A model generated the notes under the pieces. That model saw only the letters and a program-made list of their open reading frames with translations. It searched no databases and was not told where the DNA came from. A program made the position numbers and the translations under genes. From assembly GCA_000002435.2 (NCBI GenBank), contig CM018793.1: a stretch of DNA of 64,000 nucleotides; one strand, given 5' to 3'. Below, piece after piece: positions 15,260 through 59,360 of the stretch; the first letter of the stretch is position 1; each line of letters begins with the position of its first letter. This DNA is from Giardia intestinalis. Its lineage: Eukaryota.

Positions 15260-15520
15260 GGAAAGTTTTTAATTGAAGGATGTCTCTGCGTATGAAACCG
15301 GAGACCCTCCGGTGACCAAGAGCAGCTTCTATCAACGATGCTTGGCCAGCCTATGCACATGCATACGCCGGTAGAGACCAAACTGGGCTTCTGCTTGCTT
15401 TTCCCAGAACGAGACGCCGAGCCTCCACCCAGCCTGTCCCTATCATCGTTTTTTGACGAAAAGAGAATTTTTTGTTCACTTATAAGAAGGAGCTTTTATA
15501 AGTACTGAAGCATGGGCTAG

Positions 15521-44000: not shown

Positions 44001-47000
44001 CTAACTGAGTATTCAGAATTGGGAATCCATTGACTACTTCTGAGTTAATACTAATATGGATGCAGGTGTAGGCCTGAAGTGTTTTTATAACCTCTGTAAC
44101 AAGTAGAAGGTCGTTCCCCTCGAAATTTGAATACATTGTCTCTAAGTAAGGTATTTCAATGTTTTTACTAAAGATTGGAAACATCTTTCTGAATTGTAAG
44201 GGATTTGTTACCGCTAACTGAAAGTCTGAGAGTTGCATCTTAAGAACCTCGGACGAAATTGCGTAGAGAGCTCCGGTCACCTTGCTAAGCCAGTCTGAAA
44301 ACACCAACAGTACTCGTGAAAAAACGCGAATATGGCGCTTATAGTTAAATCGTGCATTCTTATAGGCATGGTTCACCCAACCTAGTTTAGCAGCCGCCTG
44401 TAATGCTACATGCAGTTCATTACTTGATAGAATTGATGGCTCAGTTGGACGAGGCGCTTGGGCCTGGCTCAAGGCCAGGTGAGGCCTTGGTGTCGTCTCG
44501 TTTTGATCAAAGGAACCTGAGAGTCCAAAAACAGTAGGGATTGTGTGGGTAATTGAATTTCTGATATCATATAAAGTGGAAAGACAATAGGAGTTGCTCA
44601 GTTTCGAGATTGGGCCAAGGAAGTCGCAAAGGTAGCATGCAACTGGAGTCCACTGCTTCACAAATAACCCGTGGTCCTCCATCACAACTAGGATTTTGGA
44701 TAGCTTGTCCAAGTTTAATGTTGTAATATTTAACACGGATTCTGTCAGCTGCAGCACCCGTAACATGTAAGAAGAAGCTTGCGTAATAATCTTTGAAATG
44801 GACTCGGTAATGTTTTGGCGTACTGTAATAAAGGCCGAAATAAGAGAAAGCTTAAAGTCGATAAGACTAACAGTAATACTGCCAGTGGAAACATATGAGG
44901 AAATGGCATAAGCATCTAGTATCTCTTGATCGATAGAACGAACCAGCTCAGCCGATATATGCACCATAAGTACAAGATAATCGACCCCCGACGAATTAGC
45001 CAAAGTAACAATATTCTCATTAGGGGACTCTCCTTTTAGAATAACGCTCACGTAATCCCTAGCAATGGTTTCGATAGCAGACAGCGAACGTACAAATCCT
45101 GGCGAGACCTTCATACTGTCTTCGCCCATGCTAGTATAAGGATTAGGTACTTGAGAAGTGTCAAAGCTTTGTGTCTCGTCATCAGGAGTTTCGCTGGGCA
45201 TTTGTGTTTTAAGTAAGTGTTCAGGAGGCGCTGAGTAGACAGATTTTACATCATCTGCGTCGAGGCTAACGTTTGGTAGTCCACTGTCTACAACGAGCTC
45301 AAAAGCTCGATAGAAGCTGCTAATGTTATTACATGTAGAGAGAAGCTCTACAAGTTTTATAGAAAGAGCCTCAAATAGGGTGTCTATTTGCTTCTTCACA
45401 ACAACATCAGTATCAGATGGTGCAATGAACGCAGTTAGGACAAGCGGAGAATCCATAGTGTCCTTCGCATATATAGGATCATTATCTACATCGGAAAAGT
45501 GCATAGCTGTTGTACTAGAGCTTTGTGGCGGCTTTTCTGTTCTGGACGACGGACAAAGGGGAGGAAGTTGCAAATGCATCCTAGGACGAACTATAGGCTC
45601 TAGAGGTATTAAGATATTAGATTGGCGCTGTTTCAAGCCAAGCCAGGACGAGAAAAATTGGTCCACCTCTTGATCAGGGTTTGACAGAAGTAAGTCTTGT
45701 GTTAGTGTGAATGCAAAGTCGTCTGAATCCGTCTGCGCAAGTTGTTTGACGTTGGAGAGAAGGGCTTTGCATATATATCTGGCTGTGGGGACCTCAAAGC
45801 TATACTTATCTAAGAAAAGCAAGGACCGCGTCCGTCTATCTAGAAGATTGCCCAGGGGACGAGAGTAAACAATGGCAGTTTTTTCGGTGGACGTGGGATC
45901 AAACGATAACTGAGGCGCTAGAACAAGAGAATTGATAGAAGAGATAGAAGACTCCGTGGTGTATAAGCAAAATGACAGCTCGCGAAGGCTTTGTTGTAAC
46001 CAAGCAAAACCTGTCACGGAAGTAGATTGGTGAGTGAAGCCAATACTTGAATTCTTAATAGTGAGTGTAGATGAAATGAACGGTGCGTACATTGATGAGT
46101 CTGTACGAAACTGAAGGCGGGGAAAGCCAGTCACTGATAGCAAACTATCCAGAAGATTACGACTCCACATCTCGTGCATCTGCAAAAAAATATTCCCGAT
46201 GTGTGTCTTTATTTGTTCAACCAATGTACGGAGAAAGCGGGGCCATATGCGATCGAAAGCTCTCATTAGGATGGCGTCGCTAGAAAGATCCTGATTCCCA
46301 TCTGCTAGAATAGAAAGCGCGGTATGAATTACGGAGAGTGGCAAGCCAGATGCAAGTAAGCGATCACGTCTGTCACTCTTCGTCTCGGAGGCCTCTTTGA
46401 GTGATTTGACACGAAGCTGTTTGATCTTTGTTGAAAAGTCAATAGAAAAGGTACTATCTGAAACGCATGTTGGAACAATGCTATCTACCACATAATTCAA
46501 CAGGCTCGACTGCAGAAGAGCAACTATTGTTGAACTTAATATCAAGGGAATGATCTTCTCTACGAAGTATAATCGAACAAGATAATACCGTTCCGCCATG
46601 TTAGATATGGGTAAGAACGATGAGAAAGGTTCCATTAATAGAGACCCGCGCTCCTCTGGTGTAGCTTCAGTTTCATACAGTATTGAAAGGTGTCTCCGTA
46701 GGAAAAGTTCAAGAGATTCGGATACATCTAACGCAGGCTTTTGATTGGCAGTCCTGAGGTTAGAGGTTAATGAGTCTGTGTCTTTCGTCTGTGAAGATAA
46801 AGCAGAAGTATTATGTAAGATTGTAGTAACTCTTTTATCCAGAAGAATTTGCAGATCAGTTTTGATTGCTGTACAAAGCTCCTCGTCTATAAAAAACTCT
46901 GTTGCAAGAGATGACACGATAAAATGAGGAATCTCTACAAGGGCGTCTTCTTCTACCTCGTGCGTACCATCAGGGAGAGGAGTAAGGAGACGAAGGACAT

Positions 47001-48339
47001 AATCAATGATTCTAAATATCTTATTCTGAAGCGCAATTAATAAAGGATCAAACTTAGAGCAAGAAAGAAGGCGGTCATGAGCATCCTGAAAGTGTGGCAC
47101 AGAGCAAGGAGGTAGACAGAAAAGCTCAACCCCATAAAGGGTTTTATGGGAAGGATCTACAAATAAGCGTGCGCCCTCTGCATGCTTTAGAGACAGTCTA
47201 GAATAGAAGCGCAAATGATCAAACCTATGGCGTGTATCAAGTCTGTTTGTTTCTAGAGCGTTCTCAACGATGCTTTTAGCAATAACGAACTTATACAATG
47301 AAGAAAGACCATGCAACTCGGCATCTTCTAGATCGTATTTCACTACCATTTCAGAATTTTCCTCGGACGTCTCAGAGGGCGCAAAAGTGAGTAAGCTTTT
47401 TGATATATAAACGCTTGGAACCATTATGTCCAATAGGTAACTGTTAGTGAGCGAGAACTGATCCTCCTGAAGATGTGCTAGTCCTGTTATTGAAGACTTT
47501 AATTCGTCAATGAATAGATGCTCGACACTATCAAGATCTAGCCCCTGGACAAACCCCTTACGCGATGAATACATTACTGTAAACCTTTCCCATTCCCTTT
47601 TAACTAGTACCTTAATCAAAGTAATAAGATGCTCATTTGGGCATACTCCATGCTTTAATACGGGATTCTGCTTAAAGAGGTGGTCGTTAGAGGTTGCAGG
47701 AAGGAGGTATCTGTTACGCCATGGAGTCGTAACTAACTTGTTAGAAGAGTCTGTGTCAAGACTGGAAGCATAAATATCGAGCTCAGGACTAGCCATAACT
47801 GCTTTAATCTCCTTATAGAATATGTTTCCAAGGATACTATTCAGGCTAGCATAACTATTCACGCGAACTAGGGCGAGTGGGGCAACCACTACTTCTCTCT
47901 TCATAAGCAGAACAGCTCGTCTGTATAGAAAATCAACATGGTATATCTGACACCACCTGTAATAGCCAGGCCGCACTAGTATATACCCAGGGCACCCTAA
48001 CTGCATTGGCACACAGTGAAACTGCAAACCATTAAAATTAATCCCTGTGGATATTTTGCTGCAGAAATCTTTTGCACATTGTGTGGTTAGGACTTCTATC
48101 AAATGGACTATTTCATTATGGCAAGAAGAAATTGGAAGTATTGTTGTTACTGCTTTAACTCGGTCTCCATTCTTGGCCTGAATTATGCTGCCTCCCATTG
48201 CTGTGTCGCGCTCGGTCTTCTGCAGCGAGCCTCCAAGAATCTGGGGAACCCGTAATGGTGTAGTGGATCTCTTCAACGACATTCCTTCGTGAAGACAATA
48301 AATATTTATCCTGTTTCTGGTTATCAAAGATAATTTCAT
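29077..48339 (-). CDS. Giant hypothetical protein, 6420 aa, single uninterrupted ORF; one Walker-A-like P-loop (GEAFSGKST) near residue 3540
   Basis: 19.3 kb with no stop in frame. ATG (cat) at 48337-39. Coding-like composition throughout. P-loop at plus-strand coordinates 37684-37710, minus strand. No dynein, midasin or other giant-family signature recognisable by eye. Confidence 0.7.
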   Translation of the reverse strand: MKLSLITRNRINIYCLHEGMSLKRSTTPLRVPQILGGSLQKTERDTAMGGSIIQAKNGDRVKAVTTILPISSCHNEIVHLIEVLTTQCAKDFCSKISTGINFNGLQFHCVPMQLGCPGYILVRPGYYRWCQIYHVDFLYRRAVLLMKREVVVAPLALVRVNSYASLNSILGNIFYKEIKAVMASPELDIYASSLDTDSSNKLVTTPWRNRYLLPATSNDHLFKQNPVLKHGVCPNEHLITLIKVLVKREWERFTVMYSSRKGFVQGLDLDSVEHLFIDELKSSITGLAHLQEDQFSLTNSYLLDIMVPSVYISKSLLTFAPSETSEENSEMVVKYDLEDAELHGLSSLYKFVIAKSIVENALETNRLDTRHRFDHLRFYSRLSLKHAEGARLFVDPSHKTLYGVELFCLPPCSVPHFQDAHDRLLSCSKFDPLLIALQNKIFRIIDYVLRLLTPLPDGTHEVEEDALVEIPHFIVSSLATEFFIDEELCTAIKTDLQILLDKRVTTILHNTSALSSQTKDTDSLTSNLRTANQKPALDVSESLELFLRRHLSILYETEATPEERGSLLMEPFSSFLPISNMAERYYLVRLYFVEKIIPLILSSTIVALLQSSLLNYVVDSIVPTCVSDSTFSIDFSTKIKQLRVKSLKEASETKSDRRDRLLASGLPLSVIHTALSILADGNQDLSSDAILMRAFDRIWPRFLRTLVEQIKTHIGNIFLQMHEMWSRNLLDSLLSVTGFPRLQFRTDSSMYAPFISSTLTIKNSSIGFTHQSTSVTGFAWLQQSLRELSFCLYTTESSISSINSLVLAPQLSFDPTSTEKTAIVYSRPLGNLLDRRTRSLLFLDKYSFEVPTARYICKALLSNVKQLAQTDSDDFAFTLTQDLLLSNPDQEVDQFFSSWLGLKQRQSNILIPLEPIVRPRMHLQLPPLCPSSRTEKPPQSSSTTAMHFSDVDNDPIYAKDTMDSPLVLTAFIAPSDTDVVVKKQIDTLFEALSIKLVELLSTCNNISSFYRAFELVVDSGLPNVSLDADDVKSVYSAPPEHLLKTQMPSETPDDETQSFDTSQVPNPYTSMGEDSMKVSPGFVRSLSAIETIARDYVSVILKGESPNENIVTLANSSGVDYLVLMVHISAELVRSIDQEILDAYAISSYVSTGSITVSLIDFKLSLISAFITVRQNITESISKIITQASSYMLRVLQLTESVLNITTLNLDKLSKILVVMEDHGLFVKQWTPVACYLCDFLGPISKLSNSYCLSTLYDIRNSITHTIPTVFGLSGSFDQNETTPRPHLALSQAQAPRPTEPSILSSNELHVALQAAAKLGWVNHAYKNARFNYKRHIRVFSRVLLVFSDWLSKVTGALYAISSEVLKMQLSDFQLAVTNPLQFRKMFPIFSKNIEIPYLETMYSNFEGNDLLLVTEVIKTLQAYTCIHISINSEVVNGFPILNTQLASQEDQPVTADKHTEHPSSLEPEHGALEFPCQFTEYHVGWQLPYQGYRWPYLYSRPCPDSVSEQSTRESAIQAPTSPLDYLLVTDCNFEFSERSDLFASRNSQGLIVASTYMHGHLCDNKESDIPVDHPSLAHYDVFRMFMELYILIEEIKNVYLRVSSWSRALNIDMHLVDSPAELEAVLLPLCLLVTSFVKLNQLYKAAPSKALIDLDAGALVTLLEICATSISTIRSSFVYSNWTSTADQVDCYLRAITPRLFLLCFLTSPDAIEEDLAGFGEVTGLNAFLRSAPTIHAAPIDTYFEPDRTILVEHLFLYDNTDAMFEAAAAIYARGLVNRQAMVTLNKIDDWINGLNFQPITLTASHRSGHLLSVLYAFWGITGKGEFSDHTIASKLGPVMGGKASSLTSLLQKVRTLILAKEKVLEAYSSRLGILADAADDSSLAQLSSFECISDDISVDEEAGRDDSLFAMQSLDRNKDLFAGSIVLASDVRTRSRAQSITGSLDLTTKQPNQHDHLTSKESLLGVPTLVCCKRHVEYIREAMFAVAYILFNDYSPSTQTVARRLEAELILLHTLAICVQRAMTILPELLLLLPDLCSISLGSAHPRLRKAFLSSQDPLLEVVSLLNIMRQLHSLCKESSEENACCLSGEITSLRGSPVQPSLLPTVGSFGLLRGIVRRCPYIIRSLSLHIARADSILGVFSDTILRFPLVSSFTSNLSLEYACIPCIPATYHAQGQHHVSDLIRRCPLIRSAVLYNNIYTSTSALVPSGKLRPIVFHTSSSAFSNSIYDIMTLRTGTGSSTRLQITGLCAGYEQLRFLKPIDMPDTLPAFGASVFAPSVHRAALIKEYLKGLRLLMEERYEELVGSCLYQCVHYALSTLVFMHLDGSPVNFLQLYYKCMPEFKRAVATVAIGTATVLTDKSLTSCYSLRNYKHDRRMYIQALLARIAEHERTLQTIMEDSLTLYIMRAIPNLSRAATAEKVASFISDEGQVRAAFTELYADAKSQACITAMSCGVHPNVHMHHIISTLPYGLPTESALTEASSSASCGELTDWRKDRVYTTHNQNFLSQKNDETLLVTCANVAIPIIAQYTGKASLLDCIPLNYRQLQAVSQLGISMQSRIPAFLVGDTMRSYNNIDYLIIVHTLCRYFGMRYEFVFCSPATDPDALLHRLCTRILGGRYVVLCGVEFLEESQLNGLINVLSSYNLAKGAVPTVEQADTGPLDFSILHSTGKDAIFPGGYAICLPEAVYEGSKLSLTIRGERLRKLFPMHSLIEIKDYGTLVPVSLLQQTNALLYDLCLEARASTNNVDLHSHKSKATEEQITNFFAEKNLSTEYRLSVSDDIPITALNFDALYPHCNCKHQTEANQLGHLFLQRSSQYGPKLYEISLFLNTAGLSTPQLRPEDVDLVLKRCKDMSNPISVATSLSAFLLSQTTLRPARDIVSRVIEGAFVLQPQHKAVLNSVVSLLNVLHGVQEPNDIDIGMLISRKTHHGTDSNFTANNIAKVWKTLKQMYTPTYAEFCETLSQEFALLEPVGIDALALCLDMLSLGPVVLLPPSTSVLQGTKGTGLTIPQLSNKSVTAQLVKSRALSSITLRQSHFQLLVVFSQLVAKVGKLRPFFIHSLADLHENIRTIMYLGSQALLIFIFNPPSGTLARSMLSSITALQSYYPELELYYNIRAKFDFFNKPRCLLLVTAYETASIIGSNVGSVQRRLIVVPEYLKFSTMLNNYVGRHLHLAEDEQLTEKSRKLFTVTSLIDMKTSALSIQYLQSLCSRRTTAELKGECLAEKRLRLGSKLFGAFITCLTDNLMRREFSIVPSHIVWTLYRQLLVLFLTSFRVLVLSPCHPEAYATFEPIPEVMNTQLYQLDSYLSLHTITSSTPLAKYDSYMQLQSAPRTAFFSVSFSVTYLQNFIYEALDNLSVIINLFLPIYAAVFNALHVLHVMYFKRPLNKLSKIYKKGLVECVYRPEKFVAHVMSMFADSAQLLNKSDLDDAMALLPDLFPEHYADEDDDLSAYSYLGVSDSDGSFLYFVASDKGRRLCVQHFPYMCSSGIFADASFERLFDQSTTPKHELTLTFDCERILFIVYLSSFIMAKLSVCLIGEAFSGKSTYIRAAEIFLGKYVWRECVALFDIDSFDEVLQKLISTCYLHNIQTARTQKTAIEANASHQDGSEAAHYSSSSKAKRARASSVIGCPLSILDVTEDNTLLDETKDINQSIILDVPSGKLPLYHLTVTNLLTSTIAHRVSDDALVARGAADEQRLSMLESLVASASEPQVAVQNDRLSMLLGEKYIIMENSERSPVCGLTGVTGARFSSGIFVPNISIVVESSYLYDFFLASELTFVLPPMNNTKEFLLLLLKRNFQHPSLSNLDSFAPKIAQAHVASAPQPRVSSVHTKNKYDCNLYVGVTEPEQEFLYEYSDSYLLQFIEGLLLVEYHLPVSILRVISEMKRLQKYIDSVDLDNIQLSAVTLGSLMGALRNIPAVKHSHVSCILDELASAVAIGRLAPHGPYGPLNPENMSKYLRTNTLISMSSHTGVQALPNWELRVLKAVFKRSFCNTGTSSSNISKAPGDIDGTLIDSQKFKSGSSIKRFHYSGDIELLNDGGKYKHFVDACARARQHYAKLLFYNPHNNSINRQVFEVHSSVVHECLLDAMDPTVCNRVFTLTIDISMLMEQNSLKVFYYIKYLRNPGLFSKLHSPADAKSMQALALRVPVFLMSQLEMSGTLYSSFLHALQTMGNYRISNRKTFLKVAQQTFSSDMEGFGIDADSQANSFSCSRSVTSLHQTISGRSLSECDGPLLAHAAKNFDLRAFLSITEEPTEIAIKRRQRILIDTQTMIQSLMHQTVGGSESDSEPEPNNITTSSLQSRPVTTTVASENLMIELTDALVSTLTAKSEAAASHYIIRAAVLIALGINPLIAFQDFTPTSSTYLCDRCSSTIPDYLLHYINRGSLEINAEEYTDLFLSTPTDIMVTIPMSLFNALLNKSPAIGILSIVESGSSLLSLFTNGEVRVLGALLAKYFCLTTMLSGKEIINILSRSFSLVVFADTSVDHPLPLQELPVIRHTIDENDRIHSLQVGTAENILQGSYKASETATPSLQLVRAIPYFILSNIPYNLDPKPFITQHEHSETPLHDAYSSMYCEIFCQTTLCIYKCCMQNVSHSIPYSLARFSEVASYYTNELIAKHLKTITFIQKILSSITLFDNGIRNGLFSPSIRNDIIYLRDQLVSIKLKVKLDFIRAVIMLQNACCDGPLIAARLLFYPFITSIWGNCVQFELGLFECLKNRKIMNNSLNTSYSDNSTVMLQSLFNLSTSDELIQRSDMLSNYGLPSRLLMLCEDLMWPRWRTQLTCSLCNPDPKLIQEIIILLQYIKFGFKFLFVTSDLARIIIPACEVYLLEARLEDCKQRLSAMGVNVEQALEKYNATGAINATIEDLVLGTQGSHGDTGKRPEKGVAQYNEMHYLIAELEDLLKQIASLKYSAVSYKRLPSNVRFGAPSTCYNYHEVRRKLLIYLDCHLPPPIFEALLKHALLQDKPIVFLNFGSAAMPMLNMMILTKLALLIESRLTKRNARVSVTTTYSVDIVRPLHDYRIYYVLTTGASLKFLLETGFINLRNCDMSTLNAPKFQFKSNSLNLLRMQNPSVTEHELQYKLREISEKFSSVYSLYVNGFDGLEIVRRESCLECSDRLHRNIENIANNLEKYILSKKEIMSRLVKREESNAVFVHLQHASKDSEGFDFAEMNLYCIGVERCIEHREELAKKIAESSTISEYAKYFGTAITSILLLLRQMSLIHPSIATVFTDHFFECHLSYLDDHVGSNPSRAFTAIVNTAHYILENTVLLLPERERGLYINLFISIYNLCFKLGHPDDLTQLKMILVNDIRFLVSHFSDKFNSHLPLYNYARQIAASCPTSFRCSPTVVYSWKLFSLLSIYNPRRFSDWYEYFTHNKAVFTLLNFAGDAYKMIVGTYLYKERTAQSSDKVKQAELGIAETSKSAIADAIDRTAGDDINLDATVAQEIEEGMRTLKTTHVPIVPPYVHDELAAYSTRLVPLPPSLQYPSFENIWVALLLIVALRQDLILSTMEFFCRITPPSAIHKFLQDDASLRAKAKADWCSANNEAELLSDGLLSRVASATAVAIDAGNLQAEGKETQTRAVGDADGPLDLSVINPANLDHVAQLFKNLQEEYNFEATQQVSLGRGSRTVLLYYDEGLAILPYLQAIFSKEIIPKYGFPDYVCQPAPATSYLATNVVIVDIRYNPHYSLAHLIDLYSSGVKPAYLVYVLVPLSCCQKFGTESGAATPENISVQLAVFIDICRPVQLYVQRPTTFLDAMQHAISTMRNYTLSHSVGCSVYESSFVKALTLLAIRYSMLISNGMFKVDDNEMLLLYVHLISQLKTLPLANQGRRLFFTKKQGAASHIANLPMIYSVLCHTCSEINTSYVLSNLYSLIYRKSSAILIGSPINASVSVAISYLNSKSLNVASFYEEVPTITHDQAEAERTDFDPSLTSIHNSDVEISNSRSVFSSAESSIDDVSMCSFKTDYTYADQRQVDGAPQATSARLMTLAGDELNANVLLNATDPDGFRSYSRAELQKILSSRRHMVTIHASSRMDALLHFPETMSERTLIDLVEKIKLITMDLEKFAMKHTNVAEIIRTQELQERLADTLQPICFLRPELSRCQSTVRDAFSLMLSTDVISNIASHSIHSNAYSSVEVDRAEKALPPTLYAVLLLSKTYQRVRRLTYGFTSNSLVEQSHPIKVLSENIWSVRGDIYQPIMHDILKLFKLQMCLKYNLEMGYYSIVFTLLDPTYYRDWFLRYDGQNCIQCSKIDNRRQKRKHTMPLATVRVTNMRLYGIGYDYMLNTIVDISPESLSYPNNCDIYAILVPCESSSSSMLPDSVKTRDSYLMMYEALSYSSSPPQSEEELAEIDQNFGVDHYYENTIQHVTIPVDFPGCWDLILQNKTSLKKSDIDAKSPYCGTGYF

Positions 48340-48340
48340 C

Positions 48341-48830
48341 AGTTGTACGGTGATTCACTCCACCCACCGGTTGCTTCCAGCGCTGTGCTGCCGGGCCGCC
48401 TGCAGGCACGATTCAAAAATCTCACGAGTAAATTCTCGTTCAAGCTCTGGCCAGTTCAGAGACGACTGTTGGTCATTGATAACATAATGAGAGAGTCCTC
48501 TCTAGTGATATATCCAGAGCCTGGCACATTCCTCTGCCATTTCATGAGCGTGTGCTCAATCCGGGTGTGCGCGTCGGTCTGCCCAGGATTCAGGCCTTCT
48601 CGCAGACCCTCTGCTCTACCGGTGGTGCCTCTCCTTGGCCTGCCGTCTGGTGGGTGAAGCTCGGGTTGCTGTCTTTTTTAGATGCTCCCATCTGTCAAGG
48701 GCTGCCACCGGGCTCTCCGCTGGCTGGGCCCTCGGTGCCCGTCCGGCTGTGGCTCGAGTCAGGGCTCCCACAGTCGCGGTCACCTGGGTCTCAGTGGGCC
48801 GGCTGGTGGGACCGGGTGGGGGGTGTTGTA
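48341..48830 (+). repeat. Arm A of an inverted repeat (VSP-3'-flank-like element, about 85% identical to arm B), abutting the start codon of the giant gene
   Basis: The reverse complement of 48345-48690 aligns with 50600-50870 and with 59031-59360. Shared blocks include ccaggattcaggccttctcgcagaccctctgctctaccggtgg and cttttttagatgc. Homology continues, with more decay, to about 48830 versus about 50420. Confidence 0.75.
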
Positions 48831-50419
48831 TGTGCCCTTGGTGTCAGTGGGTCAGTGGGGTGGTGGGTGATCTCCGCTCTGTTTGCCAAGGTGGTTGTGT
48901 CTGATCCCCAGCCTTCGTTGCACTCCAAGACACAGGCACCGACGATCGTGTCGTGTCCCCTGACTGAGCGCCTCCCTTGGCCCCTTGTCTCAGGCAGTAC
49001 TGCCTCTCTGACTGGCTGGTGCGTGAGTGTCGAGGCAGGCCATCGCAGCCCCTCCTGTTGCTCTGTGCGGGTCTGCTGGGCCCCTGGCATGCCCTGTCCA
49101 GTGCCTCGACGGTAGTTCACCTCGGCCAGCAGGGGTGTGGATGGCCTGTGGATGGGATGGGTTCTCTCGTGCCTCTAGTGTGATGGCCCAGAAGACTGGC
49201 ACAGTGGGGCACTGGTGACTGCACTGTCCCTGTGGTCAGCTGTGCTGCTCCTGGTGGGTCCTCGTTGTGGAGCGCTGTGTGTCGTCCGTAGGCAGAGGTG
49301 AGCCTCCTTGGTCTCAGGATGCTCTACCATGCAGAGAGGAGCACGCTGATGGTTACCCATACCTCACCTGCTGTGCCCGTTCGGGAGTTCCCGATGTGGT
49401 CTACTAGGATCTTGACCCCTCCTCGTGGCTCTGATGACCCCTCGGGGAGAGCCGGGGCATCCTATGCCGAGGGGCGTGCACCCTCCTGCATGAGCTGGGA
49501 CCCACTGCACTGCCTCCAAGGAGGTCTGCTATGAGAGGCAGTGAATGATTGACAGCCCCAGAGTGCGGTGGAGGGTGATCGTGGTCATCTCTGTGACCGG
49601 GCATCACTCTGATGGTCGGCTCTGTGCCTGTGTGGTGCTCATGGGCCACCTGTCTGCCTCATCGCCTGCTGGACAGCCGGCCTCTTGTGGCGTCCGAAGG
49701 CCTCCTCGCTCCTCTGGCTGCTGCCCCCTCAGGTCATCGTGAATGCAGTCGAGGCCAGCGAGTCTGGTGCCTGCCTGGGTGTCATGGGGGGCTGGCAGCT
49801 GTCAGGGCTCTGCCACTGCTCACCTGCCTGGAGTGTGCCTCCCTTGGGTCTGCTGTGCTGCGTGAGTCCTCTGGCTTCCTACCAGGCCCTGACTGTGAGG
49901 GTGACTCCACCTGGCCCTCTGATGCCCCTGTGGATGAGCATAGCAATGTGTCTGGCTAGGGATCTCTGGTGCCCGTGTCTGTCACTGCCTCTCGGGTGGC
50001 TGTCTGGGGCTCTCGCATGAGGTCTACAGTCAGCGTGTCCCGAGCAGACTCCAGTCCTCTCTGGGTCCACACAGTCTGTCCGTGTGTGGACGGTCCTCCT
50101 GCACTCATGTCCATCTGTGCACACTGTCACTCAGTCTCGAGAGCAGACCAGTGCAGTCGCCAGGGCTGCTGTCAGAGGGAGTCGTCTGTCACTACATCGC
50201 TCGAGCAGCCCATGCAGATCAGGCTGGTTGCTGTGCACCCTCATGGCAGGGCTGTTTGACTTCCCTTGGCTATCCTCTCTGTCCCGGTGTGCACGGCTCC
50301 TGAGGGTTGTCTGGGTGGAGGCACTCACAGATCACGAGCACACAGAGGGATGAGTCACAGATGGGCAGCCCCCAGTCACCACAGCTACGATCACCTCACT
50401 CACCAAGAGGTCAGGGGCA

Positions 50420-50870
50420 TATACAAGTACCCCCACCTCAGCCCCCACCAGCCCCACCAGCCTCACCGCCCCACCCACCAGCCGGCCCACTGAGACCCAG
50501 GTGACCGCGACTGTGGGAGCCCTGACTCGAGCCACAGCTGCCCGGACACCGAGGGCCCAGCCAGCGGAGAGCCCGGTGGCAGCCCCTGACAGACGGAGGC
50601 ATCTAAAAAAGACAGCGACCCGGGCCTCACCCACCACGAAGGAAGACCAAGGAGAGGCGCCACCGGTAGAGCAGAGGGTCTGCGAGAAGGCCTGAATCCT
50701 GGGCAGGCAGACGTGCACACACAGACTGAGCACACTTCCACAGAGCGACCGGGGAAGGTGCCAGGTTTTAGATATACTAATAAAGAGGACTCCCTAGTAT
50801 GTCGTCTACAACCAGCCATCGTCCTTGGACTGACCAGAACTTGAACGAGAATTTACTCGTGAGATCCTTG
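50420..50870 (-). repeat. Arm B of the inverted repeat, lying immediately downstream of the 3' UTR of the truncated VSP at 50941
   Basis: The 50607-50865 core is nearly identical to 59031-59290. It is inverted relative to arm A. It starts about 70 nt beyond the VSP poly(A) signal. Confidence 0.8.
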
Positions 50871-50925
50871 AATGCACCGCAGGCGGACCTATCAGCACAT
50901 CTACACAAGCTACGCACAGTAACGC

Positions 50926-50932
50926 GTTTACT
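50926..50932 (-). promoter_or_regulatory. Giardia polyadenylation signal AGTAAAC, 10 nt after the VSP stop (TAGACTTAGGTAGTAAAC)
   Basis: Matches the established Giardia AGTPuAAPy consensus. The context TAG-ACTTAGGT-AGTAAAC is the conserved VSP 3' end. Confidence 0.7.
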
Positions 50933-50940
50933 ACCTAAGT

Positions 50941-52668
50941 CTACGCCTTCCCTCTGCACACGAACCACCAGCAGAGGAACCCTATGAGGCCCCCCACGAC
51001 GACGACCACAGCGACGGAGATCCCCGCGATGGCCCCCGTGGAGAGCCCGCTCCTGTTGGCGCCAGAGGACACACACTTGCCATTGTCTAGACTGTATCCA
51101 TCAACACACTCCCCACATATATTGTCCATCACACAGCTCTTGCAGTCACTCACAGAGCACAGCACACACCCACTACCATCCTTGTTGGGCTTCTTACCAC
51201 TGTCACAGGAGGTGCACACAGCAGCAGCCATGCCAGCCCCAGTCAGAGCTGCTGGGGCTGTACACTGCGAACAGCCATCCACCCCCACATATGCCTTAGT
51301 ATCTACTAGTGTGCCTAGGGGGTTGCCACATGCCAATACAGACTGTTGAGCATTGGTTGCTTCTGGGACTACGAAGTACTTATTATTCTCACTAACAGCT
51401 GTACAGACCCCGTTGTTAGCTGTCTTGCACATATGACTACCGGGGGCCTTCGACACATCATAGCACCCTCCCATATAGAGGAAGTAGTTAGCAGCAGTAC
51501 ATGATGTACAGACACCATTGGCACATCCATTATTATTAGCCTTGTCACTAGCACAGAGACCATCAATTGGTACCTTACCACTATCTCCACAATAAGAACA
51601 ATAATGCTTTGTGGTGCCCTTATCATCTATTACGATGGCATCGCAGGCTCCAGATGTCCCCCCGCAGGCAGTATCATCTTCACAAGTCTTGGTGCATGTG
51701 AGGTCGCCAGGTTCTCCGCTGGGCCTGTAGTTGGGCTTACATTCAGTGCACTTGAAAGTATTGCCATCATTCGAGCAGACACTGCATCCATCGATGCCAC
51801 CTTTGGTTGTATCACTACATAGGACACACTCCTTTGTTCCCTGGGCATCCTTAAGGAAGTACCCCGGCATGCATTCAGTGCAGTCCTGTATGTTTCCCGT
51901 TGAGCCACACTTTGCGCAGTTTCCTGCACAGGGCTTGCAAGTGCTACTCAAGTAGAATCCAGGGAAGCATGCTTTACACACCGGCTTCTGAGAGGCTTCC
52001 TTGCTACACGTCTCGCAGTCTGCTATGCCCTGGTCGTTGCCAGACCCACTGCTATCACCGCACAGTATACACTTGGTATCTCCGTCACTTCGAAAGTGCG
52101 TCCCGTCCTGTCCGACAGTTGCGCACCCAGCAGCATCAACGCACGTTGTCGTCCCGTCGGCAGCAGTTCTTATCAGCTTCCCGTTACAATTGGTGCACTG
52201 AGGCTTCCCCGTAGCATCACTATATTCACATGCAGTGCAATCAGTTATGTCGGGATCACATGCCTTACAAGTCCAGGTCTTCTTGTCTGCGTACTGGGTT
52301 GCCTCGCATTGACCAGCATCTACACATTGATTATTCTTCAGGTACTTCCCATCCTCACACGTTGTGCACTGGCCTGCACCGGTGCAGTCTATGCATCCAG
52401 TAACGCACTTCTTACATGCTCCGTTATCTTTATAGTACCCAGCCTTGCATGTATCACATGTGGCAGCCGTTGGGGTGTTTGGTGCCATACATGTAGCGCA
52501 GCCCTCGACTCCCTTTGTCGTGCCATCTCCCACCGTGTCCCAGCAGAGGATGCACTCGCTACCAGGTTTCTGAGGTGTAACTGGGTTCTTGAACAGGCCG
52601 TTATCTGCCTTACAAGCAGTGCATACTCCGTTACTGGCCTGTGTGCATATCTCACTCCACTATCACCC
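50941..52668 (-). pseudogene. 5'-truncated VSP (variant-specific surface protein) lacking an ATG and signal peptide; VSP fragment or pseudogene
   Basis: C-terminus GGLIGFLCWWFVCRGKA-stop, GGCY motif (YFLYMGGCYDVSKAP) and many CXXC. The track start at 52533 is a GTG. The Cys-rich frame continues upstream to an in-frame stop at 52669-71 with no ATG or hydrophobic leader. The first in-frame ATG (CATCMAPNT) is not followed by a signal peptide. Confidence 0.6.
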
Positions 52669-52697: not shown

Positions 52698-54462
52698 CTA
52701 CGCCTTCCCTCTGCACACGAACCACCAGCAGAGGAAGCCGACAAGCCCTCCGACGACGACAATCACAGCAACAGAGATCCCCGCGATGGTGCCTGTGCTG
52801 AGGCCGCTCTTGTTCATGCTGTCTCCTCCAGTGTCTCCGCCGGTGCCATCGTCAGTCTCTTGTCGCGTTATGTAGCAGATGACAGATCCTTGACCATTAG
52901 TTGGAGGAGCACAGCTTACGCAATTAGGCACACCAACTATTCCATTATCGCTATCAGCTGCACATTTGAAACACTTACCAGTACCAGTTCTATAATATCC
53001 AGAATAGCATTCAGTACAAACATCCGAATTGCTAGCCCCACACTTTGCACAGCCCTCAGAACATTCCGGACATTTTCCTCCGGCTGGGCTTTGTCCATTG
53101 GCTGCACATGTCTGACACTGTCCATTCTGAGCGCTACTGCATAATGTGTTACCTGGGTATGCTGTCGACTGATAGCACCCGCCAGACTGCAGGAAGTATG
53201 AACCTGTACAGGCCGTACATGTCCCGTCGTTTCCTGGCGTGCATCCCATGACTTCTCTTGTTGCTGTCGATACGCAAATACCATCTACTGGGGCGTATCC
53301 AGCCTTACACTTGCTGCAGTACTTCGAGCCCCCAACGACGGCCGTGCACTGCCCGTCTGCGCAGTTCTCTGCATACCTTCCCGTGCACTCTGGGATGCAT
53401 GTGCCGGTGGCTCCATCGTCGCCCTTGCTTAGCACATACCCAGGGTAGCAAGCCGTACACGACGTTTTTGCATTAGTACTACAGCTTGCGCATGACTCGT
53501 GGCAGGGGGTGCACACCTTGCTATTAGCATACATTCCAGCAGGGCAGGCATCTAAGCACGCATTCTTTTCTGGAGTGAGATACTTGTTTTGTTCACACGT
53601 CAAGCATGTGACCAAAGGGGTGGCTCTGGATCCTTGAGTGAGCAGACTGCACGTCGCACAATTAGCGATTCCACCATCTGGCGCACTATTACATGCAGCA
53701 CACTTGTTTCCCTGTTGTTCATCGACCTTTGGAAACGTAGCCGCTGTACATCCAGATGCTTCGACGCACGTGCCTGTGCTGCCACCGTCCACTTTCAGAT
53801 ATGTCTTAGTACCAGTTCCTTTACACTTACTACACTTGTTATTGCCTGTTACGGCACACGTAGCGCAATTCTCGTCTTGGCATGCTTCACAAGTGGGGCC
53901 AAAGAACCCGTCCTCACAGGTTGTGCACGTGGCAGGCACAGGATTAGTATCACTTGCTGCTGCTTTGGGTGCATCACACACTTTGCAGTGCAGCACGCCC
54001 TTGTACTTGTGGCTGTTTCCAACCAACACTTCTTCAACATCTCCACATGGTATGACCGATTGGTGTGCATTATCTCTATCTGCACCTGGTGGCACGAAGT
54101 ACCCAGCCTTAGCCTGCGTGCACACTCCAGCATTTGCTGTTTCACACATCGTGTTACCAGGCTCAGTAGCTTTTTTGTAGCATCCGCCTTTGTACATGAA
54201 GGATTCATGAGCACACTGTGTGCATACTCCGTTGTTCTTAGTACTGCACTCGTTGTTGTCTGCCGTGCACTTGCCGTCTGTCGGAGCAGATTGAGACCCA
54301 CTGTCATTGCACTGTGAACAGTACTTCTTGCCGTTGATGACGGCGCTACAGGTCTTGCAAGTGTTGGGGTCACTGCCAGTTACCTCTTCACATTCGTCTC
54401 CGGCTTGCGCTGCCCGTGCCATCTCGAGCATGAGGCCAATCAACAAAACTGCGTAGAACATT
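52698..54462 (-). CDS. Variant-specific surface protein (VSP), about 587 aa from the true ATG
   Basis: The track start at 54497 is a TTG. The real ATG (cat at 54460-62) gives the signal peptide MFYAVLLIGLMLEMARAAQA. The protein is Cys-rich with CXXC motifs, two GGCY motifs (FMYKGGCYKKATEP, YFLQSGGCYQSTAYP), a TM helix and the invariant CRGKA tail. Confidence 0.9.
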
Positions 54463-57400
54463 GTGGCTCGACGCTCTGTTACACAGGAATATAGCAACTT
54501 CGCTCGTCAGTCCGCCCCTTCGTGGCATCCGCCTGCGCTGCATGACGTATCGGCAGGGAAGGCCTCCACATGGGCCTGCACTGAGAGGTGGAGTTGTGCT
54601 GGTTCCGGTCTCATGGCCTGCCATCCCCGGGTCCCATGTAGCTAGCCGACCATGAAGATGGATCGATCAGTGCAGGCCCCTCCTCTGTGTTGCAAGGCGC
54701 ATCGCATGATAACTGCTACATGGCTGACCAATGCTTCGCTCTTCGCTGTGATGTGAGGGTCTCCTGGCGACCAGTTCTCCTGCTGTGCCAGTCACAAGGT
54801 CTGCCAAGGGACTCCTAGGTTCTCCTGGATGCCTGACCAGCGACCCGATGGAGCCGGCCGTGCGATGTCCAGCAGCCCGAGCCACGGGTCGTCACAAGCA
54901 GATGCCCCAGACACTGCTCGTCGAGGTCCTACGTTGAGGCCCGGCAGGAGCGATGCCCCGTGGAGGAGGGCTGCGTGTTCTATCGCGACTCACTACGACT
55001 GCCCCCTCTGCTTAGGGACACGCAACATGCCCGCCGCGAACGGATGGATGTCCGTCTGTCATACGACTTAACCTGGTTGCACCGCAGACCGTCGATAAGC
55101 CTGCCCCCTGTCGACTCCTATGCCACTGAAGGGCTCTGCCGGCCGATCGTCTTTAAAGACTGTCCCTCGCCGGTCGCAGGCCCATCTAGGAACCGGTGCC
55201 CGTCCGTCCTCATCTGGGATGGTCCCACTGGGGTGGACACGCCTTCGGGTACGCAGTGATGTGCCAGCACCCTTAGAACTGGTAGTCCCGCTCGCCTAAC
55301 CGGCTCCAGCCAACATACCACAGCGTCTCTCACACGAGGGCTACCCCGCGCACCGGAGAAGAGGTGATACCGGACAGCCAGCGCTATCTGGGCTGCCACA
55401 CTCCCTGCTAGCCAAGGGATAGTGGAGCCGTAGACGAACTGGGCCGTTGTCGTCCCTCTGGTTGGGGGTGCCCAGGTCCTGGAGCCATTGCCAAGAGTGA
55501 TCAGCTGGGTAATGTACACAGCGTGGCCACCGCTGCCAGGGGACACTCTTATGCTTGAAAGTCTACCAGCGAGACTTGGCCCGGTTGGCTGGTCAGAGAA
55601 CGGACTGTGTGCTGGTCAACTGGACTGAAGATTGATGATAGTGCTATATGGACAGCAAGCTAGGAAAGTCAGTGCCTTCTAGATTTCGTGTCACATTGAA
55701 CAACCCGCCGTACGAGATGCCTTAGACGATCAGCTGACTTTACAAAGTACTTTGGAGTACCAACAACTGTGTGGAGATGAGACAGTGAGAGAGCCTTAAA
55801 GCAGCTCGCGAGCAGAGAGGCTGGTGTGCACAGCAATGTGATCCATTAAGTCTCTGTTGGGTGCACAAGAAATGCTCGAATGTAGTAAACTGGTTGGCGC
55901 CTCTTATAGCAGGCAAGGGCTTCTATCCGCGCTGTGCAGTCGTGGGATGCACCTTGTAGACTTGAGGTGGACATCTACAAACACCGTGACTTGGAATGTA
56001 ATTGACAAAGTGCTTGAGGTCTAACTTGAGTGGGCAAGAGCTGATTGTGTCACCTCGGTTGGCAAGTATGTCCAACTGCGTAATGCGTGTAGTCGTCCCC
56101 TGGTGAGGGTGGATGGCCATCTACAGAGCACTATAAAGCTAATCGTGTGGATTGTGGGAGCATCATCCGGTGGCTCGTCTACTGCGGAAAGACGCAACTG
56201 AGGAACTGCTGAGTAGCAAACACGCTGACTGATATTGGTGTGCACCGTATACCTCTACAATAGGGTCTTGCGCCACGTACGGAGAGGAAACGAGCTCCCT
56301 CGACTTCGGAACAGTTGAGTATCCAGAAGCCTCTGCCTCGCTACAAATGCACAAAATCAAATCAGCCTCAAGTCGTCTGCAGACTCCACGATCTTTCCAC
56401 GTTTGGAGGCCAGAGGGACTCACGTGTGTCCTTATTGCAAATGGGTCTATACCTAGTCATCCTATTACAGAGTGGGCTCCCTGGCTTTCTCCATCTTCTT
56501 TGTCCAAATTTGCTTCCCGAGGATCTTTGTACACGAGTAGCCTTCTGTGTACCCAAATAACATCCTTCTTTGTTGAGGCGCTTCACCAAGGACTAGATAC
56601 CACTAGGTCATGCGGACAAAGGCAAACCTTTTCGCAGGTCCGTCTAAAACCAGCCACGGGCATCCAGACAAGTGTATAGATGCTTATCAAGTGGACTGTG
56701 ATACAGGCCAGTTATCGCATGAGGTTCACAGCAGTTGGTGTACAGAGTTCTGTTTTTAGCCATAAGTGTGGAGCCCATGTCTCACCTTGAAAGACGGCAG
56801 AGCGCTTTGTAGGACCTTCCGGGTATATAGTTATTGCTATAACTGATGGAGAAGCAGGTACGAAGACACGATGCTTACACAGAAGCACCTCTGGTGCTAT
56901 CTTCCACTGATAACAGATAGCTCAGACAGGCGGTGTACGCTCTATCATCAGACCTTATACGGCGTGTGTGCATTATTAGAGAAGCTTCTGTAATCTCTGC
57001 TCAGTCTGCTGGGCAGGCACAGCCCAAGTGCAACGAAGACGGTGGTGGAGGCAGCCACCGGCGCAGGGCAGTGGGGCGTGTGGCTCGGTGCAGTGTTCTG
57101 TAGTTAGACACCTCGGCCCTCTGAGACGAGAACAACACGCTGTCTGCACATGCGACTGCCTTTTCATGCTGCTTACTCCTATGAGCAGTTGCGATGCATC
57201 GTATGCCAGAGAGCGGGGCAGAGGGTCCCCAGACTATTGGACCAGCAGGCTAGACTGACAAGAACAGTTGACCATGCGTGCAGAAGCTCTGTCCTGGGGG
57301 CGGCGGGTGCAACGGCTGCCTCAAGTCTTTTAGCCGGGGTGGAGCTGTCCCCTGCTACCTGAGTGGTCTCTCATGCGAGCCATCGCCACCCTGGGCAAGC

Positions 57401-59030
57401 CCCTCGCTCGTTCACCAACCGAGATCCAGATCCAGAGTTCGAAGGTGAGTGTCAAGCGACTCCGGCGGGAGAAGAACTCTTGTTCTGCCCTCTTCCCAAG
57501 GACGAGGCAGGACAACCACGATCAGGGGACGATCATGATGCGCTCCACAAGGCAGTCCCGAGTCCCCTGGAGACCCAGACACTGGTCTTCCTTGAGACCT
57601 AGCAGACTGCGTTCCACTGGATGTACATGGGCGGCATTTGCATGGCGCAGGGAGGCGCAGACTGATGGAACACAGCGGTCTTGCTCGACATAGCGAACAT
57701 TCCAACAGTAGACGGCCTCTGCCAGGCGAGTGTGCCCTGCCCCGAGGAGCTGCGTCGAGGCCTTCCTCCGGCTGCGACGCGCTGCACTCCTGGACTTGGT
57801 CCCTCGGGGTTGAGCATGCTTCTGTGCTGCGGGGGACAGAACCTGCTCATCGGAAGCTGAGGAGATGCCCCGCTCACTGCCCATGCCGACGACAGCGACG
57901 CGACGAGGCAGTCACAGAGGCGACAGGCCCGGCGAAGCAACATGGCTCGACGGTCAGCACTGACAAGTATAGGAGCACAGAGTAGCAGGGGGCCCCCTTC
58001 CTGGCCGGTCTCAAGGAGCCCCCAAGGCAACCGAGGGCCGAAGCCAGTGATGGCACTAATCACTCGCCCCGCTTGTCGAGATGGACCCACACGTGACCTA
58101 TGTGAATCCCTCGACAAGAGATGAGGCCCTTGGGGTGCTTGGCTGACAGAGGCGGATTGATCCTGCCTGCACCGGAGAGTGGTGGCGGCCTGGGCCACTT
58201 GCCGGGGGTCTGCCACAGCAGCTGGTAATGCCTTGACATCCTCGAGTAGACGGGTGCCGATTGTAGAGAGACGGCCTCGGTGAACCGGTCCTGACCGCTC
58301 CTGGTGCCTCAGACGACGCCTCGACAGACCGAAGCACCACCCCAAGTGTGCTGTGCGGTGCAGATGGACCAGCCCACACGTCACTGAGCCAGATGCACTG
58401 CACAGGGTGGGCGTCGACGCGGTCTCGTGCTGGGTGACGGACCACCTGCAAGAGCGCCCTGCGATCCATGAGCAGAGGGCCATACTTCTCCCCGACACAA
58501 CACATGGGAGTACTCCATCGACATCCACGAATGCGTACCACAACCTCAAGATAGAGGGACACGGGGAAAGCGCCCTCCGATCATACTCGGGACTGATGGT
58601 GCCCTCCACGAGGAGACGAAGAGGCACCCGAGGAACGGGGTAGACATCCGAGGTATGGCGTGCGATCTTCGTTATGAAGCACCAGCACCACAAAGCGACC
58701 CTGGAGTACATGGCCAGAGTTAACTGCTCTCGAGACTGGATCGCCGCGACTGACGCAAGGCCAGAGACAACGGGTGCTCACTAGTGCCAGACGGTGGCTG
58801 GCCCCGACAGGCCAGAGCGGAGAGACGCCCCGGAGCGCATAGTGGAGCACCCAACGGCTCCCCGGGCGAGGAGGCACAAGGCTCTTCTCCAGAGTGGACG
58901 GCATCTAAGCTTCGGATCCTGGATTTGGATCTTAGCTAATGCATGAGTGGGAGGCCTGCCCAGAGTGGCAGTGACTCACGTGGGAGACCACTCAGATAGC
59001 AGATGAGAGTAAATTAGGGGACCTTATTGA

Positions 59031-59360
59031 AAAAGAAACAGCGACCCGAGCTTCATCCACCACGAAGGAAGACCAAGGAGAGGCGCCACCGGTAGAGCAG
59101 AGGGTCTGCGAGAAGGCCTGAATCCTGGGCAGGCAGACGTGCACACACAGACTGAGCACACTTCCACAGAGCGACCGGGGAAGGTGCCAGGTTTTAGATA
59201 TACTAATAAAGAGGACTCCCTAGTATGTCGTCTACAACCAGCCATCGTCCTTGGACTGACCAGAACTTGAACGAGAATTTACTCGTGAGATTTTTGGATC
59301 GTGCCTGCAGGCGGCCCGGCAGCACAGCGCTGGAAGCAACCGGTGGGTGGAGTGAATCAC
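59031..59360 (-). repeat. Third copy (C) of the VSP-3'-flank-like repeat, in the same orientation as arm B, with no adjacent VSP coding sequence
   Basis: 59031-59290 is nearly base-for-base identical to 50607-50865. 59291-59360 matches the segment of arm A that abuts the giant-gene ATG (ccggtgggtggagtgaatcac). Confidence 0.8.

Follow-up and report, generated by a model that had tools for sequence, protein, structure and literature searches.

An inverted repeat with a GC-rich, gene-free centre, located in Giardia between a 6420-aa ORF and a VSP gene, is probably a partnerless copy, now in decay, of the non-coding module found between two convergent, identical VSP genes. The structure belongs to a kind that earlier publications have noted and does not constitute a new element. 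In its intact form, the module would be a spacer-containing palindrome in which a VSP gene runs into an arm of ~520 nt, followed by an oriented core of ~1.5 kb, the inverted arm and a second VSP gene that faces the first. A previous sequence-only reading of this DNA had proposed a source of hairpin RNA or, alternatively, a mobile element; the simpler context that it missed is most likely a convergent VSP-pair palindrome, of which this would be the centre and which has lost one gene.

Anatomy of the inverted repeat

The DNA analysed, referred to here as the window, is a 64,000-nt stretch of Giardia WB chromosome 5. The repeat and its parts are located as follows:

48341–48870, plus strand: arm A (left), from repeat search, blastn and multiple alignment; reading from its outer to its inner end is 5' to 3'
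48597–48680, plus strand: near-invariant arm block of ~85 nt, TTCTCGCAGAC..CTCTGCTCTACCGGTGG.GCCTCTCCTTGG..GCTGTCTTTTTT, with a conserved T-run at its end
48809–48897, plus strand: arm/core junction, G-rich, indel-prone and hypervariable (36–60% identity among paralogs)
48898–50399, plus strand: core of ~1.5 kb without coding sequence, with 62% GC, 14% A on the plus strand and an intrinsic orientation
50400–50900, minus strand: arm B (right), which repeats arm A when the minus strand is read and passes without a break into the 3' end of vsp50
59031–59360, minus strand: copy C, a solo truncated arm consisting of the outer ~330 nt, which stops at the T-run and has neither a core nor an adjoining VSP

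The repeat is genuine, its similarity lying far above chance expectation. A blastn comparison aligned arm A (48384–48810) with the inverted segment 50899–50474 at 84.4% identity over 429 nt (E 4e-129), and arm A with copy C at 84.6%, in good agreement with the ~85% that had been estimated for arm A from the letters alone. Within the A/B match three collinear segments were distinguished, of 163 nt at 93%, 158 nt at 81% and 76 nt at 80%, the inner 163 nt being the best conserved. Since the multiple alignment carried the repeat past a ~40-nt indel to ~48870 and ~50400, the arms are given here as ~520 nt; the DNA that they enclose measures ~1.55 kb. The ~85-nt block was retained in all seven arm copies, three of them in the window (A, B and C) and one in each of the loci L001–L004, and was never found in L005–L009.

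The plus strand of the core is composed of 14.3% A, 30.8% C, 31.3% G and 23.6% T; GC content in this region lies between 0.60 and 0.65, and the AT skew falls to −0.44. No credible ORF was present in the arm–core–arm unit, and a six-frame Pfam scan of 48341–50900 was empty at E ≤ 10. Comparison of paralogs revealed frameshifting indels and variable sites that lacked codon periodicity (49/57/46), and the earlier description of an A-poor, GC-rich and ORF-free spacer was borne out. A motif check of the window copy identified no strict G-quadruplex motif at the arm/core junction.

Neighbouring genes and poly(A) signals

The genes and signals that border the module are the following:

29077–48339, minus strand: 6420-aa ORF, not part of the module; its 5' end marks the truncated side of the module
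50851–50857, minus strand: second poly(A) signal, AGTAAAT, inside arm B
50926–50932, minus strand: canonical VSP poly(A) signal, AGTAAAC, just past the vsp50 stop codon
50941–52533, minus strand: vsp50 (GL50803_137710), a VSP-family ORF ending in CRGKA and the sole VSP joined to the module
52698–54497, minus strand: vsp49 (GL50803_0041472), a complete VSP of 587 aa that has an Inr and a signal peptide and lies upstream of vsp50 in head-to-tail order

The VSP joined to the module, vsp50, is a promoterless pseudo-VSP: its ORF starts with neither a Met nor a signal peptide, and an Inr is lacking. It stands last in a linear array of two genes. On this chromosome the adjacent VSP entry, vsp48.1/48.2 (137707/137708), is a true tail-to-tail identical pair. 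Arm B starts ~27 nt after the AGTAAAC signal, a shorter distance than the ~70 nt beyond the poly(A) site that had been reported. Arm B, L001 and L003 align without a break from the CRGKA-stop end of the VSP ORF into the arm. The earlier claim that the giant gene is adjoined by sequence resembling a VSP 3' flank was right. The AGTAAAT signal within arm B sits in a small hairpin (ACGAG TAAATT CTCGT) and is mirrored at 48427–48433 on the plus strand in arm A and at 59277–59283 on the minus strand in copy C.

On the opposite side, arm A is an orphan arm with no VSP at its outer end. Its outer edge (48341–48350) adjoins the first ATG (48339) of the 6420-aa ORF, as had been read previously, and the 5' end of this ORF most likely takes the place of the missing left-hand VSP. 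A second in-frame ATG, preceded by an AT-rich stretch, is located near 48282 and, judging from the sequence, may be the real start of the ORF; the search for orthologues of the giant gene with which to place the start codon yielded one 103-aa fragment only.

Recurrence of arm and core at other loci

The sequence-only reading had named two findings that would speak against it, namely that the spacer is unique and that the arms are a generic 3'-UTR motif; neither description fits the data. Arm and core were found together, collinear and at 84–88% identity, on two contigs (L002 and L003) of another Giardia assembly, L002 matching window positions 48397–50065 at 84% and L003 matching 48447–50101 at 86%. 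These contigs are 85.7% identical to each other, with the last ~130 nt at 100%, and both match the window; the module therefore belongs to a multi-copy paralogous family. On L003, the end of a plus-strand VSP is followed without interruption by an AGTAAAC signal, the arm and the core. In the window, the core leads at its other end into arm B and from there into vsp50, so that across these copies a VSP is linked to either side of the module. Both contigs end inside the core, and none of the recovered copies displayed a complete two-VSP module with this core. Pattern scans of JGI metagenomes with arm and core strings returned 0 matches, and the diagnostic strings had no match in supplement texts on paired VSPs.

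By its distribution the arm is specific, and not a generic VSP 3' flank. It is absent from five other VSP or CRMP 3' ends (vsp49, CRMP 10659, L005, L008 and L009). Among candidate paired VSPs of other assemblies, L006 likewise lacked the arm and L007 contained faint arm motifs only. The contig of L009, a P15 VSP, ends 516 nt past the stop codon and has an unrelated GC-rich flank; hence, this arm family is not common to all candidate pairs.

A mosaic of conversion among three arms

Copy C, which had been proposed as a third copy of the arm, was confirmed as such, with blastn identities of 94.6% over 297 nt to arm B and 84.6% over 331 nt to arm A. It is chimeric, its outer ~60–85 nt being arm A-like and the remainder identical to arm B: over 48367–48425 it equals arm A at 97–100%, and over the equivalent of 48426–48635 it equals arm B at 100%, a stretch in which arm A reaches 63–97%. 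Arms A and B, for their part, are 88–100% identical over 48665–48799. This mosaic of 97–100% identity among three arms shows recent gene conversion, and the structure is recombination-active. Patches of the arms would have been overwritten through ectopic conversion with the third, solo arm, 8–10 kb away. Homogenisation between arms A and B would have lapsed (84% identity overall) with the presumed loss of the left VSP.

A tblastn search detected no VSP remnant next to copy C or arm A (E > 0.3). An origin of the core as a divergent duplicate of the GC-rich stretch to the left of copy C, or of a 207-bp array, was rejected, as tblastx and sensitive blastn were empty in both cases. The 207-bp array itself is coding, on the minus strand.

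The multiple copies, with terminal inverted arms enclosing a non-coding core, could also be read as a non-autonomous foldback or TIR-type mobile element that was inserted here and elsewhere, and these are features shared with foldback and MITE-like transposons. In addition, arm A and copy C have a sharp common outer edge (TGATTCACTCC..., at TGATTCAC), outside of which the DNA is unrelated. That edge is, however, equally explained as the boundary of a conversion tract, and further observations argue against insertion. Unlike such transposons, the module has no target-site duplication (CAGTTGTACGG versus CTACCTAAGT in the flanks) and its arms run into VSP ORFs; because the homology of arm B, L001 and L003 passes the supposed terminus into the VSP ORF, there is no discrete right end. 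The outer boundaries also differ among copies, L002 and L004 each starting elsewhere than the A/C edge, and no transposase or RT remnant was detected in six frames. To our knowledge, no cognate transposase for foldback or MITE-like elements is known in Giardia. We regard a mobile element as decidedly improbable, and the earlier suggestion of a TIR-bounded element gained no support.

Descent from GilD / Genie 2, a family of dead non-LTR retrotransposons, was weighed as well. These elements carry inverted repeats of up to ~170 bp, a size to which the inner, best-conserved arm segment of 163 nt comes close, and retrotransposon relics have been reported between duplicated VSP pairs. Against this, published RT relics lie between head-to-head duplicated pairs, and tail-to-tail pairs have none (bioRxiv 10.1101/2022.03.07.483299). 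Six-frame Pfam scans were empty for both 48341–50900 and 54400–59100, with no RVT or endonuclease signal at E ≤ 10 in the former and none in the latter. This origin was rejected, and we give it hardly any credence.

Possible read-through transcription and hairpin RNA

In the hairpin reading offered previously, transcripts that continue past the end of the VSP array would pair arm B with arm A, and Dicer would process the resulting dsRNA of ~400 bp into small RNAs that feed VSP silencing. The pairing is physically possible: the arms can pair over ~413 bp, with a cofold dG of −845 kcal/mol versus −418 kcal/mol for shuffled arms and with perfect runs of 65, 47 and 39 bp. Past the two proximal poly(A) signals, no further AGTRAAY occurs on the same strand before 48353–48359. 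Overlap of 3' ends is pervasive among tail-to-tail Giardia genes, at 81% of pairs (PMC3610916), alternative distal polyadenylation has been reported for some VSPs (bioRxiv 2022.03.07.483299), and in intact pairs the dsRNA would reach into the VSP ORF itself.

The fold itself is nevertheless no evidence, because any inverted repeat folds in this way. The signals at 50926–50932 and 50851–50857 lie upstream of nearly the whole arm and transcription would have to read through both, while the adjoining vsp50 has no Inr, start codon or signal peptide. Since the arm is not VSP coding sequence, siRNAs derived from the orphan would hit arm copies only. No Rfam match was obtained at E ≤ 1, and the core showed no excess folding. 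The hpRNA endo-siRNA loci of Drosophila and plants share with the module a spacer-split inverted repeat that yields a long dsRNA stem if transcribed through, but the module arms, unlike theirs, are not copies of the coding sequence of a target gene. Of the previous proposal, then, the capacity of the arms to pair is retained and the silencing function is not supported; we consider it unlikely that this locus acts through hairpin RNA.

Conservation of the core

The window core is ~88% identical to the cores of L002 and L003, and the outer arm only 63–74%. It is worth pointing out that this difference is not what a purely passive spacer role predicts.

The core itself might be functional, as an lncRNA, an insulator or terminator zone separating convergent genes or a replication-related element, with the arms being secondary; in addition to its conservation among paralogs, the fixed intrinsic orientation and the strong strand asymmetry agree with such a role. 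An A/T run is a simple promoter-like element in Giardia, and runs of at least 6 nt number zero in the core and seven in the arms. By our own estimate, however, about three such runs would be expected at the GC content of the core, which makes their absence weakly significant. Local folding gave z values of ~0 on both strands, equal to those of coding controls, and no Rfam match was found. Moreover, patches of L002 and L003 are 100% identical, and concerted evolution can therefore mimic constraint. We think it decidedly improbable that the core is the functional part of the module. A structured non-coding RNA was rejected (no Rfam match at E ≤ 1, mean z ~0); in the ~85-nt block of the arm, too, a structured RNA finds no support because 0 of 29 predicted pairs show compensatory change.

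Comparison with convergent VSP pairs and other palindromes

A module left behind by a convergent VSP pair would account for the dimensions of the locus. In published convergent pairs the identity of the flanks extends 318–559 nt past the stop codon and the ORFs are spaced 2393–3222 bp apart (PMC2996952, Table 5); twelve pairs in the -> <- arrangement have spacings of 2526–2813 bp and no gene between them (PMC7000408, Table 2). The spacers fall into groups whose members are reported as 'very similar', and two pairs have identical ones (bioRxiv 10.1101/2022.03.07.483299, text and S4 table). Identical convergent pairs at a fixed spacing of ~2.7 kb make up at least a tenth of functional VSP genes, for a reason termed 'cryptic' (Adam et al. 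2010). In WB, KAE8301282/3 (P0015/P0125) are an adjacent 681-aa pair. In the window, arm B runs 467–541 nt from the vsp50 stop codon (50941 to 50474–50400), inside the published range of flank identity, and the 2600 nt from that stop codon to the outer edge of arm A (48341) are gene-free, within the published spacing of 2526–2813. The VSPs of a convergent pair are (near-)identical and lie on both sides, and here vsp50 is on the right and the 6420-aa ORF on the left. As only one VSP is present, we file the locus as an orphan or degenerate derivative and not as a pair. The outer end of arm A is where the 3' end of a VSP would be expected, and the giant gene starts at this point, from which we infer that a left-hand VSP was formerly present and has been lost; given that no left-hand VSP remnant is detectable, the locus might also never have been a full pair.

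The intact module most likely works as a recombination structure. Its inverted arms would supply the homology for intrachromosomal gene conversion that spreads outward and keeps the flanking VSP copies identical, and the unique core would prevent a perfect, and hence unstable, palindrome. Gene conversion is thus the process that presumably maintains identity between paired VSPs. The module could instead be an active cis-acting cassette, made up of the conserved ~85-nt arm block and the oriented, conserved 1.5-kb core, that drives inverted duplication and homogenisation of the adjoining VSP, or it could feed RNAi-type VSP control through a read-through hairpin RNA. We hold such an active role to be unlikely; if it were true, the orphan would be a natural 'half-site' that separates these activities. 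Taken alone, the locus is a degenerate instance of an arrangement that has been tabulated in the literature. A conserved, oriented and non-coding spacer module, if demonstrated, would provide a handle on the duplication and homogenisation of the antigen repertoire; the traits that matter for this are that the module can persist with one VSP missing, still swaps sequence with other copies and carries a near-invariant block.

The closest known systems are the convergent pairs of WB (vsp1267 and 11–12 others; Adam 2010, Xu 2020, Rodriguez-Walker 2022). Shared features are VSP-3'-flank arms of ~520 nt that give way sharply to a unique core of ~1.6 kb, a span of ~2.6 kb without genes inside, and similar spacers that form a multi-copy family. 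The VSP-rich and gene-poor setting is common to both as well. Unlike those pairs, the locus has a single VSP, a pseudo-VSP, opposite a 6420-aa non-VSP gene; its arms are 84% identical, compared with nearly identical arms in the WB pairs, and an extra solo arm lies nearby. The spacers of the WB pairs probably belong to the same sequence family as the module, a membership suggested by the common geometry and by the core found beside a VSP tail in L003.

A further parallel, by analogy, is offered by the ampliconic palindromes P1–P8 of the human Y chromosome, whose arm identity is kept by intrachromosomal gene conversion. They have in common with the module gene-carrying inverted arms, a unique spacer and, most likely, arm-to-arm gene conversion. 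The scale differs, from hundreds of bp to 2.7 kb in Giardia versus 9 kb to 1.45 Mb on the human Y, and unlike the Y palindromes, the Giardia structures involve genes for antigen variation and would form a whole palindrome family with one common spacer sequence.

Structure of the arms and core

The inverted arms that the sequence-only reading placed at 48341-50870 are real: 48384-48810 aligned with 50899-50474 at 84.4% identity over 429 nt (blastn, E 4e-129), with 93% identity across the inner 163 nt and about 80% in the outer parts. In a seven-copy alignment, a G-rich stretch holds an indel of ~40 nt, beyond which the repeat resumes and reaches about 48870 and 50400; the arms are therefore ~520 nt long. 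The expected third arm (copy C) was also found. The features of the arms and of the neighboring variant surface antigen (VSP) genes are as follows:

59031-59360 (-): copy C, truncated third arm
48427-48433 (+), 50851-50857 (-), 59277-59283 (-): AGTAAAT, second poly(A)-signal-like motif, in every window arm copy
50941-52533: ORF that fits vsp50 (GL50803_137710); adjoins arm B; 515 aa from the first Met; linear-array member
52698-54497: vsp49 (GL50803_0041472); complete VSP of 587 aa with Inr and signal peptide
60455-62629: CRMP GL50803_0010659; ORF matched to published tables

The AGTAAAT motif, conserved in five of the seven arm copies, sits about 75 nt past the canonical VSP signal in a small conserved hairpin (ACGAG-TAAATT-CTCGT) and may act as a back-up 3'-end signal. 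All seven copies share an almost unchanged ~85-nt arm block (48597-48680) whose end is a T-run, exactly where copy C terminates; no compensatory changes were seen within the block. An RNA gene is not supported, there being no Rfam family, no folding excess and no covariation.

The enclosed DNA was likewise as first described, A-poor and ORF-free. The core has 62% GC and 14% A on the plus strand, matched no Pfam family in six frames at E<=10, and differs from two paralogous copies by frameshifting indels and by variable sites (49/57/46) that lack codon periodicity. It is ~88% conserved among paralogs, compared with 63-74% for the outer arm, and the G-rich junction is hypervariable. Seven A/T runs of at least 6 nt occur in the arms and none in the core. 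The near-invariant block, the core conservation beside a hypervariable junction and the absence of A/T runs may be functional, or may simply be a product of concerted evolution.

Composition resembling that of the core (plus strand A 12.5%, GC 64%) was also observed in a perfect 207-bp x 15.9 tandem array on the minus strand at window positions 1-3295 (to ~3330); this likeness has a different cause, because the array is coding. Its minus strand holds an open frame of >1100 codons with 14% Cys, CXXC motifs and a signal-peptide-like start (MLVGFLLVCAVTQA), and the array is therefore the repeat part of a VSP/CRMP-type gene that the window edge cuts off, probably vsp51 (GL50803_112693, 'TR207'), for which the old assembly had just 2 repeats.

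Copies elsewhere and specificity of the arm

With a small ORF inside arm B as query, four ORFs were recovered from ERZ27317378, a further Giardia assembly. The window has exactly three occurrences of a 30-nt conserved arm block; each of the outside Giardia contigs that carry the arm (L001-L004) has one, and the comparison VSP contigs (L005-L009) have none. The arm is absent from L005 (a solitary VSP), L008 and L009 (two P15 VSPs), vsp49 and CRMP 10659, and is not a generic 3'-UTR motif; in VSP/CRMP 3' flanks without the arm, homology ends 17-26 nt past the stop. Nor is the spacer unique, since arm and core recur together in L002 (84% against window 48397-50065) and L003 (86% against 48447-50101). 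L002 and L003 in turn share 85.7% identity; arm plus core is therefore a multi-copy paralogous family. Generic arms and a unique spacer, the outcomes set out as refuting the sequence-only reading, are thus both contradicted.

L002:2785-2914 and L003:2630-2758, from the same genome, are 100% identical over the last ~130 nt and ~88% elsewhere, a conversion patch within the core. Both contigs break at this stretch because their mutual identity there ends assembly; they stop within the core, and no complete two-VSP copy was seen. In L003 the sequence runs uninterrupted from the VSP ORF end through an AGTAAAC signal into arm and core, and arm B and L001 are similarly continuous from ...CRGKA-stop into the arm. 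The left module end thus joins a VSP tail in L003, and the right end does so in the window.

Two flanks without a clear arm were also observed. The P15 contig L009 (ACVC01000185.1) holds a candidate pair gene, a 719-aa VSP equal in length to the WB convergent-pair gene 14586, and breaks off 516 nt after its stop; this flank (12161-12676) is very GC-rich and unrelated to the arm family. It may represent convergent-pair arms of a second family, as would fit the existence of at least two spacer families. In L007 (human gut metagenome ERZ942288, k127_166502), the 3' flank of a Giardia VSP is GC-rich and A-poor and carries arm-like motifs that are only faint; this could be an arm of another assemblage that has diverged.

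Locus and neighboring genes

Window sequence strings matched to published tables placed the locus, with its several VSP-family ORFs, on G. lamblia WB chromosome 5 (NC_051860.1), where the next VSP entry is a true tail-to-tail identical pair, vsp48.1/48.2 (137707/137708). Since the head of the vsp50 ORF has neither start Met nor signal peptide, vsp50 is best read as a pseudo-VSP; no Inr was found. The 6420-aa ORF begins where arm A ends, at the position expected for a VSP 3' end. The sequence before its first ATG is GC-rich and belongs to the arm; a second in-frame ATG lies 19 codons downstream (48282-48339, -) after an AT-rich promoter-like stretch and may be the true start, in which case ~60 nt of unique promoter would separate gene and arm. 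For the N-terminal 600 aa of the ORF, a search of 1.8 billion representatives gave one 103-aa fragment and essentially no other relatives.

Between the head-to-head vsp49 and CRMP GL50803_0010659 lies ~4.5 kb (54500-59030) of gene-free, partly GC-rich DNA (0.58-0.64), in which six frames gave no RT or other Pfam remnant; a 370-aa ORF (57599-58711, -) appears to be open by chance, given the high GC content. The DNA left of copy C is core-like in composition and has no sequence similarity to the core. GlsR19, an H/ACA snoRNA of Giardia, was located at 15278-15427 (-; 190 bits, full length), intergenic between two convergent/adjacent ORFs.

A probable orphan convergent-pair spacer

Tail-to-tail identical VSP pairs have been described; their 3' flanks are identical up to an abrupt divergence 318-559 nt past the stop, and the ORFs lie 2393-3222 bp apart (Adam et al., 2010; PMC2996952). 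The chromosome-scale WB assembly has 12 convergent duplicated pairs, spaced 2526-2813 bp and gene-free between (Xu et al., 2020; PMC7000408), and pair intergenic regions form "very similar" groups, two being identical (Rodriguez-Walker et al., 2022; bioRxiv 10.1101/2022.03.07.483299, text and S4 table). The window module shares this geometry: arm B extends to 467-541 nt beyond the stop of vsp50, the core measures about 1.5-1.66 kb, and 2600 nt separate the vsp50 stop from the outer edge of arm A. Unlike the WB pairs, it has a single VSP, on the right. Together with the VSP tails seen at the two module ends in different copies, this geometry indicates that the structure is most likely an orphan, decaying convergent-VSP-pair spacer with one VSP. 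On the strength of this geometry, the linkage to VSPs and published work, we infer that the core is homologous to the tabulated WB pair spacers.

Other origins fit less well. A TIR-bounded mobile element, as proposed earlier, would make arm-core-arm a transposable unit, but neither a target-site duplication nor discrete termini common to the copies were found. Derivation from a retrotransposon would predict a coding remnant, which was not found, and RT relics are enclosed by divergent, head-to-head duplicated pairs rather than tail-to-tail ones (PMC7000408). A read-through transcript could fold arm upon arm into hairpin RNA, with about 413 bp predicted to pair; however, such a fold is expected of any inverted repeat, almost all of the arm lies beyond two poly(A) signals (50926-32 and 50851-57), and the gene upstream is a promoterless pseudo-VSP.

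The class of convergent-VSP-pair spacers is already known, though poorly understood, and the window module alone is of moderate to low interest; it would carry greater weight if the module were an active duplication/homogenization cassette or a source of hairpin RNA. At 48367-48425 copy C equals arm A at 97-100%, with arm B only 55-60% identical; over the next ~210 nt it equals arm B at 100%, with arm A at 63-97%; and in the inner 135 nt, missing from copy C, arms A and B match at 88-100%. A three-arm mosaic of this kind marks recent ectopic gene conversion among copies lying in direct as well as inverted orientation. Conversion between the inverted arms of intact pairs would spread outward and keep the two VSPs identical, and the unique core would prevent a perfect, hence unstable, palindrome. 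At the window locus a left VSP was presumably once present; with its loss, the arms would have drifted to 84%. Other spacer-containing palindromes undergo arm-to-arm conversion, and the process proposed here for VSP pairs would resemble theirs.
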